Source: a virus (Duplodnaviria > Heunggongvirae > Uroviricota > Caudoviricetes). Taken from it: a DNA stretch of 5,118 bases. The first letter of the stretch is position 1, and every line of letters begins with the position of its first letter. Below the pieces are notes generated by a model that had not been told where the DNA came from, ran no database searches, and saw only the letters and a program-made list of their open reading frames with translations. Shown piece by piece: positions 34 to 60 of this stretch. The DNA lies in the IMG/VR virus record IMGVR_UViG_2541047437_000023; one strand, 5' to 3'. The position numbers were made by a program, and so were the translations under genes.

Positions 34-60
34 GCCTTCAGTCCTGAAGGCTTTTTTATT
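34..60 (+). terminator. Rho-independent terminator (possibly tR'-like late terminator)
   Basis: Perfect inverted repeat GCCTTCAG (34-41) / CTGAAGGC (44-51), effectively a 7-bp stem with a 4-nt loop, followed directly by TTTTTT (52-57) then ATTT. Lies about 140 nt upstream of the MTase start. Assignment as tR' is inference from position; pR' and qut would lie upstream of the window. Confidence 0.55.

Follow-up and report, generated by a model that had tools for sequence, protein, structure and literature searches.

A conserved intrinsic terminator predicted at the end of a small gene between a Q-type antiterminator gene and the methylase and late genes of a lambdoid prophage

The window, by which we mean the whole 5,118-nucleotide stretch of Caudoviricetes DNA that was analysed (IMG/VR record IMGVR_UViG_2541047437_000023), matches, at 99.9% identity, a non-Stx lambdoid prophage of E. 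coli O157:H7 strain PV15-279. On the annotated chromosome L002, whose coordinates exceed those of the window by 4000, the genes are arranged in the order DUF968 protein, RusA, a 176-residue DUF1133 protein, a 65-residue hypothetical protein, a methylase, two tRNAs, nanS-p and the holin/lysis genes; the last, likewise co-directional, encode a class II holin, YdfR, lysozyme and a lysis protein (Table 1). Versions of positions 1–1270 with ~94% identity are present in Stx2a and Stx2d phages, in which stx2AB lies between the tRNAs and nanS-p; the Stx2a phage Stx2_EH2201 carries the module of small ORF, hairpin, leader and methylase at 94% identity.

Table 1. Positions of the features discussed, in window numbering unless marked L002
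Feature	Position	Strand	Description
DUF1133 protein, 176 aa	L002 3078–3608	co-directional	Upstream of the window; predicted Q-type antiterminator
Q-linked block, 65 nt	L002 3616–3680		Kept in two DUF1133-type variants, which diverge beyond it with different terminators
Upstream strong terminator	L002 3695–3730		GCACAAGGAAGCCACC-GGAA-GGTGGTTTTTTTGTGT, T7; −23.4 kcal/mol, z = −6.3
Winged-helix-like ORF of 65 codons, 3′ end	1–47	+	Last 15 codons and TGA (45–47); remainder upstream of the window
Terminator hairpin, 5′ arm GCCTTCA	34–40	+	Coding: last two bases of an Arg codon, a Leu codon, first two bases of a Gln codon
Terminator hairpin, loop GTCC (4 nt)	41–44	+	
Terminator hairpin, 3′ arm TGAAGGC	45–51	+	First three bases are the TGA stop of the small ORF
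T-run TTTTTTATTT	52–61	+	Expected region of transcript release
Leader hairpin A	69–115	+	Outer helix 69–74/110–115, inner helix 75–86/94–105
Leader hairpin B	123–196	+	Closing helices 123–127/192–196 and 129–132/186–189; inner helix 141–147/169–175; apical palindrome 147–165
β-class N6-adenine DNA methyltransferase, 352 aa	198–1256	+	Probably of the M.EcoGI/GII (non-specific) family; Pfam PF01555, 2.4e-43
Weak terminator-like site after tRNA-Arg	1544–1565	+	
Terminator-like hairpin with T5 (to 1842)	1816–1837	+	3′ end of STnc100-like sRNA; −10.6 kcal/mol
Second terminator	1932–1965	+	Stem 1932–1955, 10 bp, 7 G-C, −17.8 kcal/mol; tail TTTCGTTTTG; 88 nt before nanS-p start

The stem at 34–51 consists of seven perfect Watson-Crick pairs (four G-C and three A-U), and the T-run, of composition T6-A-T3 with T at seven of its first eight positions, begins at the first base 3′ of the stem. 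The hairpin alone has a folding energy of −9.1 kcal/mol, and the segment 28–62 folds at −10.5 kcal/mol (z = −3.6), a value equalled by none of 200 shuffled sequences. A looser consensus scan of the window returned 14 terminator-like sites against 5.1 ± 2.1 expected by chance, so that matches of this kind carry little weight. Because of this high chance level a strict rule was applied (at least seven Watson-Crick pairs, a loop of 3–8 nt, then T6), for which 34–61 is the sole match on both strands of the window and for which 300 dinucleotide-preserving shuffles gave none. Read on the minus strand, the palindrome has no T-run, and the site is thus predicted to function in the + direction only. 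A stem within the range of 5–14 bp with a short loop, an adjoining U-run and the end of a co-directional ORF together mark 34–61, as far as sequence can tell, as a real and conserved intrinsic (factor-independent) terminator. Its stem is moderate: the initial annotation had described a near-ideal terminator with a 7–8 bp GC stem and six T, of which the site itself and the T6 are borne out, but not the near-ideal stem, which has 7 bp with four G-C pairs.

In the fold of positions 1–200, no competing antiterminator pairing was seen for the 34–51 stem, and the flanking hairpins are independent of it. A leader-peptide-type ribosome-mediated attenuator was discarded for this lack of an alternative partner, the overlap with the stop codon alone hinting at an influence of the ribosome. 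Searching Rfam (E ≤ 1) with 34–197 gave no match on the + strand and only a chance-level match, to P26, on the minus strand.

The small ORF corresponds to the RefSeq CDS WP_000917750.1 (L002 3850–4047). Its Pfam matches are weak and below cutoff (TrmB, E = 0.004, with HTH_24 and winged-helix models likewise weak), it matches PHROG 331 (phrog_331, function unknown) at 1.9e-37, and a literature search on the protein accessions found nothing. Among ten relatives of 63 codons, the variable sites are distributed 26/23/53 over the three codon positions, and the codon differences number 854 synonymous versus 549 non-synonymous, a pattern that is that of a real gene under coding selection.

A strongly conserved non-coding block, CTTGCTG-N9-10-(A/T)CAGAGTTAYNTGTRTGTCA, is located 40–75 nt upstream of the small-ORF ATG in all loci, including that of Morganella, and can be read as TTGCTG-17 bp-TATCTG. 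If this block were a promoter, it might drive the small gene independently in lysogens, and the hairpin would simply end that transcript and so shield the methylase from it; the AAGG-type ribosome site of the ORF, its coding selection and the placement of the terminator exactly at its stop codon are all in keeping with such an arrangement. However, a sigma-70 scan between the Q gene and the methylase, which covered this block as well as L002 3616–3680, gave no promoter, and the putative −10 element is without its final T. We regard an independently promoted gene as a rather unlikely explanation of the hairpin, and one that would be compatible with, not exclusive of, the fail-safe function favoured below.

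With the small protein as query, 24 loci were retrieved from contigs representing one genome per species, besides 80 viral contigs; genomes of E. albertii, Salmonella, Kluyvera, Citrobacter, Klebsiella, Enterobacter, Buttiauxella, Mixta and Mangrovibacter are among those represented. Nearly all loci show the same order: small ORF, hairpin at its stop, ~150 nt of conserved non-coding sequence and a methylase of ~350 residues. The viral contigs form clusters with four types of Q gene, namely DUF1133 Q (25 loci), the Q-lambda type (273 aa, PF03589; 23 loci), the Q21/QuuD type (~126 aa, PF06530; 15 loci) and the Q82 type (227 aa, PF06323; 13 loci), and each type has its own downstream sequence and its own strong terminator. 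Of 21 diverse loci, 19 carry a further, stronger terminator behind the Q stop codon and ahead of the small ORF, as do all four Q-gene clusters; this first terminator lies ~126 nt before the small-ORF ATG (~85 nt in several non-E. coli loci). The Q-specific sequence stops at the first terminator, and homology between modules restarts immediately past it. The identical hairpin is found behind the Q-lambda, Q21, Q82 and DUF1133 types, and it therefore cannot belong to the qut cassette of any single Q.

Among 73 IMG/VR viral contigs of the E. coli type the hairpin hardly varies. Downstream sequence was readable in 72 loci, of which 70 have a T-run of T6, one of T5 and one of T7; in L002 it is T5. 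Across genera the stem shows compensatory changes at position 3 (C-G or T-A), position 4 (T-A, T-G or G-C), position 5 (T-A or C-G) and position 7 (A-T or G-C), such that the non-coding 3′ arm tracks the 5′ arm, which is coding (Arg-Leu-Gln, Arg-Cys-Gln and similar). Each of the 25 hairpin-bearing loci examined has its stop codon in either the loop or the 3′ arm. Owing to indels in the loop, RNAalifold did not recover the terminator hairpin from the initial alignment, and its arms were instead aligned manually on folds of the individual sequences. A palindrome lying beside a T-run by chance might be suspected, given that loose scans yield ~5 chance sites per 5 kb, but it is refuted by the shuffles under the strict rule together with the conservation and the compensatory changes across genera, and we consider its probability negligible.

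The T-run is conserved less widely than the stem. The first eight nucleotides contain 6–8 T in Escherichia, Salmonella and Enterobacter loci, several genera have the tail TTTCTGCTG (five T of eight), and in 12 of the 25 loci there are at most four T (for example ATAACTG in L010 and ATAATTG in L014) with the hairpin still present; many of the weak tails still begin with TTT. In Morganellaceae-type relatives, where the small ORF and leader are present, the hairpin is absent. Since the hairpin outlasts the T-run in these loci, its conserved function may be something other than termination; in the lineage of the window the site has the form of a canonical terminator, and the hairpin may be kept for more than termination.

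These observations raise an alternative in which the conserved role of the hairpin is exerted at the RNA level, e.g. in blocking re-initiation or read-on, in 3′-end protection or in processing, the T-run being a later addition in Escherichia and Salmonella. Covariation maintains the hairpin where the T-run is unusable (L010, L014, L017, L021 and L024), the stop codon is always within it, and a structurally conserved leader adjoins it. The long and nearly invariant T-run in the window's own lineage is, in contrast, a terminator signature; the TTT at the start of many weak tails, the presence of the leader without the hairpin in Morganellaceae-type loci and the missing alternative pairing partner likewise argue against a role at the RNA level, and we judge it improbable as the main function.

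The stop codon of the DUF1133 gene is located 426 nt upstream of the hairpin. Its product matches Pfam DUF1133 (PF06576) at 1e-110, PF06530 (Phage_antitermQ) with 35.2 bits (cutoff 26) and PHROG 753 ("anti-termination protein Q-like") at 3.5e-74, whereas a PDB sequence search with it was less informative, giving only a weak match to Q21 (E = 0.14 over 26 residues). DUF1133 proteins of Stx phages have been assigned as Q antiterminators by HHpred (PMC8136144). By these homologies the DUF1133 protein is a Q-type antiterminator related to the Q21 family.

Immediately beyond the gene, the Q-linked block contains the direct repeat AAGCT-N6-AAGCT. Two readings of pR′ hexamers by eye in the DUF1133 module, one as TTGCTT-17-TTGAAT and one with TAAGCT as −10, were unconvincing and are not claimed here. 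The strong terminator at L002 3695–3730 lies directly 3′ of this block and ~307 nt upstream of the hairpin, and is probably tR′. In the lambda-type sister modules, the only ones in which pR′ and pause elements are clear, GGTAAATTTGCCCTAACGATGGG matches the lambda pR′ −10 and pause element GGTAAATTTGACTCAACGATGGG (read from NC_001416) and precedes the first terminator. The action of a Q protein is confined to its own binding element, which adjoins pR′ (10.1101/651190); taken with the position of GGTAAATTTGCCCTAACGATGGG, this would place pR′/qut in the Q-linked variable segment, which in turn would make the first terminator the equivalent of tR′ and the window hairpin a second, downstream terminator. 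The Q-linked block of the source prophage should thus hold pR′/qut and the Q-binding and pause elements.

The initial annotation had in effect equated the hairpin with tR′, the first terminator downstream of pR′/qut, with the late promoter and Q-utilisation site just upstream. A Q gene does lie within 430 nt upstream, as had been anticipated, and every complete late gene of the window lies behind the hairpin, but a stronger terminator stands between Q and the hairpin, and a co-directional gene of 65 codons intervenes as well, so that the hairpin does not mark pR′/qut. The gene order contradicts the assignment, as do the sharing of the module by four unrelated Q types, the end of Q-linked sequence at the upstream terminator and the location of the lambda-like pR′ and pause element ahead of the first terminator in lambda-type modules; that the hairpin is tR′ is very unlikely. 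The initial annotation also envisaged the contrary outcome of an ordinary gene-end terminator, closing a convergent gene with no Q nearby. The hairpin is indeed a gene-end terminator, but the gene is co-directional and Q is near; a convergent gene was rejected, as the minus strand has only short unsupported ORFs besides lacking the T-run.

The methylase is the first complete gene past the terminator and is without a Shine-Dalgarno sequence. The statement that the terminator precedes every gene in the window is accordingly limited to complete genes, because the window starts inside the small ORF, whose end the terminator overlaps. The methylase has 94% amino acid identity to the MTase of phage 1720a-02, which is described as "very similar" to M.EcoGII, a non-specific adenine methylase of E. 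coli O104:H4 (PMC5778455); its assignment to the M.EcoGII family is indirect, by way of the 1720a-02 MTase. Expression of M.EcoGI and M.EcoGII is reported to be absent from the lysogen, and clones that express them constitutively are reported to be slow-growing and unstable (PMC5778455). Every Stx2a phage examined in another study has a 352-residue methylase, or 50-residue remnants of one, behind Q (PMC10462455).

Between the terminator and the methylase lies a leader of ~137 nt (from ~61 to 197), the mean pairwise identity of which (0.81) exceeds that of the methylase (0.73–0.77) and of the small ORF (0.66). Folding and RNAalifold both give two long hairpins. Hairpin A has an invariant Chi octamer (76–83) in its 5′ arm and the complement (97–104) in its 3′ arm, with 74–110 folding at −28.3 kcal/mol; the closing helices of hairpin B pair the 11 nt immediately 5′ of the methylase AUG. 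In a pair count over 26 diverse sequences, 88.6% of cells are paired versus 30–43% with the partners slid (93–99% for helices 1–2, those of hairpin A), and both-side changes occur in nine pairs, a count reached by two of 500 shuffles, figures that lean favourable in that the structure was derived from the same 26 sequences. In Morganellaceae-type loci, the closing helix has been rebuilt from different sequence (compensatory replacement), and the missing terminator hairpin there implies that it is unnecessary for the leader to work. ORFs 19–213 and 23–205 span the leader, but single-base indels between loci break every frame, and a coding function was rejected. With no Rfam match, the methylase leader looks like an undescribed cis-regulatory leader. 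The leader occurs together with a methylase gene in 59 phage records, among them SfV, mEp460, cdtI and Klebsiella, Morganella and Providencia phages.

On balance we favour, with moderate confidence, a reading in which 34–61 is the second of two tandem terminators, a gene-end terminator that most likely acts as a fail-safe silencing the methylase and the late genes and that is overridden by Q. In lysogens of Stx phages and of lambda, it is established that late transcription from a constitutive pR′ ends at tR′ (PMC7547250), and Q-loaded polymerase ignores terminators (10.1101/651190). In the lysogen of the present prophage, most transcripts from the constitutive pR′ would end at tR′, and polymerase leaking past tR′, or starting between tR′ and the small ORF, would be released at 52–61, leaving the harmful methylase and everything downstream silent. 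Upon induction, Q would load at pR′, and the Q-modified polymerase would ignore both terminators and the later ones, allowing transcription of the small ORF, methylase, tRNAs, nanS-p and lysis genes. The Q-dependent read-through proposed in the initial annotation is sound to this extent, as the genes of the window are all co-directional and situated behind Q, with the holin and lysis genes following.

We infer actual termination at 34–61, its override by Q and its fail-safe purpose. A second terminator makes sense as a fail-safe in that the methylase family is reported to be silent in lysogens and harmful if expressed constitutively. Counting against this function are the modest stem, the decay of the T-run outside Escherichia, Salmonella and Enterobacter, and the loss of the hairpin from Morganellaceae-type relatives. 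The efficiency of terminators that overlap a stop codon is expected to be lowered by the proximity of a ribosome, and, with the stop codon within the stem, a closely following ribosome should weaken termination at 34–61. Tentatively, and with a good deal of doubt, the hairpin and the ~137-nt leader might be combined into one silencing cassette, in which translation of the small ORF would gate termination (a coupled ribosome melting the stem) and the helix 123–132/186–196 would bury the region 5′ of the Shine-Dalgarno-less AUG; the leader might then represent an undescribed RNA family across temperate Enterobacterales phages, with the small protein as a possible partner.

That Q lets polymerase pass terminators which precede late genes, including stx, is textbook knowledge (10.1101/651190; PMC7547250) and ordinary lambdoid-prophage biology, to which the finding itself adds little. 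As in the lambda tR′/Q cassette, an intrinsic terminator in the late rightward operon is placed 3′ of Q and 5′ of the late genes, with override by Q expected (10.1101/651190). Unlike lambda tR′, the window hairpin is not the first terminator after pR′, being located beyond the probable tR′; it overlaps the stop codon of a translated gene and travels with the downstream methylase module, not with one Q/qut cassette. The Stx phages Sp5 and Sp15, in which the 3′ end of the StxS sRNA is formed at tR′, are similar with respect to the kind of prophage, the map place and the early end of pR′ transcription in lysogens (PMC7547250), but StxS ends at the first terminator, the counterpart of which here (L002 3695–3730) is outside the window, and nothing found in the analysis pointed to a regulatory sRNA ending at 52–61. 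The hairpin also resembles gene-end terminators overlapping a stop codon, in which a stem-loop and U-run at the end of a co-directional ORF include the stop within the stem. In contrast to ordinary gene-end terminators, the next gene is harmful and the operon is antitermination-controlled, so that the site would constitute an internal barrier and not the end of an operon.

The M.EcoGI/M.EcoGII prophages of E. coli O104:H4 share with the present one, by way of the 1720a-02 MTase, the methylase family, reported as silent in lysogens and harmful if constitutively expressed, but no mechanism for this silence is given there (PMC5778455). The tandem terminators and the start-sequestering leader described here are candidate mechanisms, the tandem terminators being a concrete candidate reason why M.EcoGI/GII-type methylases are silent in lysogens. 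In module-bearing Stx2a phages the hairpin lies between pR′ and stx2AB, so that toxin transcription would have to pass at least two terminators, not one; "pR′ region" reporters and comparisons of Q/pR′ alleles should therefore include it. As the module occurs in 1859 of 5426 complete E. coli genomes (about a third), the small ORF, hairpin and leader represent annotation gaps in very many genomes.

Further downstream, a second terminator that the initial annotation placed at 1934–1964 is real, with slightly wider limits (Table 1). Two more terminator-like sites on the + strand, at 1816–1837 and, weakly, at 1544–1565, had escaped that annotation. Of the two sRNAs in the interval 1639–1908, the STnc100-like one (175 bits) is on the + strand and the AgvB-like anti-sRNA (56.6 bits, at the gathering score) on the minus strand; both probably have their own promoters; the hairpins at 1816–1837 and 1932–1955 may therefore mainly stop local transcripts rather than those from pR′. 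Dependence of the whole array on terminator read-through, as the initial annotation had it, is thus plausible for the methylase and less secure for these sRNAs and for nanS-p. Lysogens have been reported to use NanS-p esterases for growth (PMC8065619), so that some expression must take place without full induction, possibly in spontaneously induced cells.

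The non-coding leader of the M.EcoGI/GII-type adenine methylase gene (window 61–197) is better conserved than the genes on either side of it, with a mean identity of 0.81 compared with 0.66–0.77, and 59 phage records have it alongside a methylase. Its fold comprises two long hairpins in which compensatory changes are present, and a helix formed by 123–132 and 186–196 sequesters the stretch immediately 5' of the methylase AUG, which has no Shine-Dalgarno sequence. Rfam gave no match for the leader (61–197). A GATC (Dam) site lies immediately 5' of the methylase start codon (192–200, TGATCCATG) and is unchanged in all 26 aligned leaders.

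Chi octamers (GCTGGTGG) are in strong excess in the window, with five sites versus 0.31 expected, a number reached in none of 200 shuffles (see table). Four of the five form two back-to-back pairs, one of which makes up the arms of leader hairpin A (69–115), and across 23 loci that represent different genera, all but one carry the 76–83 site unchanged. The additional plus-strand site upstream of the window marks the point past tR', the probable main late terminator, where modules carrying different types of the antiterminator Q regain homology. In E. coli Z0117EC0032 (L110 2570–2600), the methylase and the tRNAs have been lost by a deletion that spares the small winged-helix-like ORF and its terminator hairpin, and the new sequence abuts the Chi-containing arm at window position ~87.

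Features of the window and of the region upstream in L002, the 99.9% identical annotated E. coli O157:H7 chromosome
Feature	Position	Strand	Remark
Conserved non-coding block	L002 3755–3849 (window −245 to −151)		between tR' and small ORF
Chi octamer	L002 3759–3766	+	upstream of window
Chi octamer	window 76–83	+	
Chi octamer	window 97–104	−	
Chi octamer	window 890–897	−	
Chi octamer	window 896–903	+	
Chi octamer	window 2896–2903	+	
tRNA with anticodon CAT	within window 1297–1529		RefSeq: Ile, ileZ-like
tRNA-Arg(TCT)	within window 1297–1529		
STnc100-like sRNA	window 1639–1847	+	Rfam, 175 bits
AgvB-like anti-sRNA	window 1849–1908	−	Rfam, 56.6 bits (gathering score 56)

The block between tR' and the small ORF carries the motif CTTGCTG-N9-10-(A/T)CAGAGTTAYNTGTRTGTCA, occupies the corresponding position in every related locus, and is retained even in a Morganella phage. 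Possible readings are a weak TTGCTG-17-TATCTG promoter, a binding site or an RNA element; a sigma-70 scan called no promoter in the block. Further upstream, a block conserved along with the DUF1133-type Q (L002 3616–3680, window −384 to −320) contains the direct repeat AAGCT-N6-AAGCT (TAAGCTTCGCAAAGCT). This repeat, a candidate Q-binding element, resembles the pair of direct 8-bp subsites to which Q21 binds (10.1101/651190).

The T-run of the terminator that ends the small ORF (window 52–57) differs in length among otherwise near-identical copies, being T6 in the window and most copies, T7 in one contig, and T5 in L002 and one viral contig.

The 80-nt spacer between the two tRNAs (1373–1452, 3' end ...GGTGGCGGTCCA) looks like a decayed third tRNA, and three tRNAs are found at the corresponding place in related Stx2a phages. 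The STnc100-like sRNA and the AgvB-like anti-sRNA, the latter also matching AsxR at 46.8 bits in Rfam, take the position of the stx genes of related Stx2 phages. Downstream of the window, the prophage in L002 is probably defective for lysis, because an IS1203 (IS3-family) insertion splits its lysozyme gene (L002 9317–11163).
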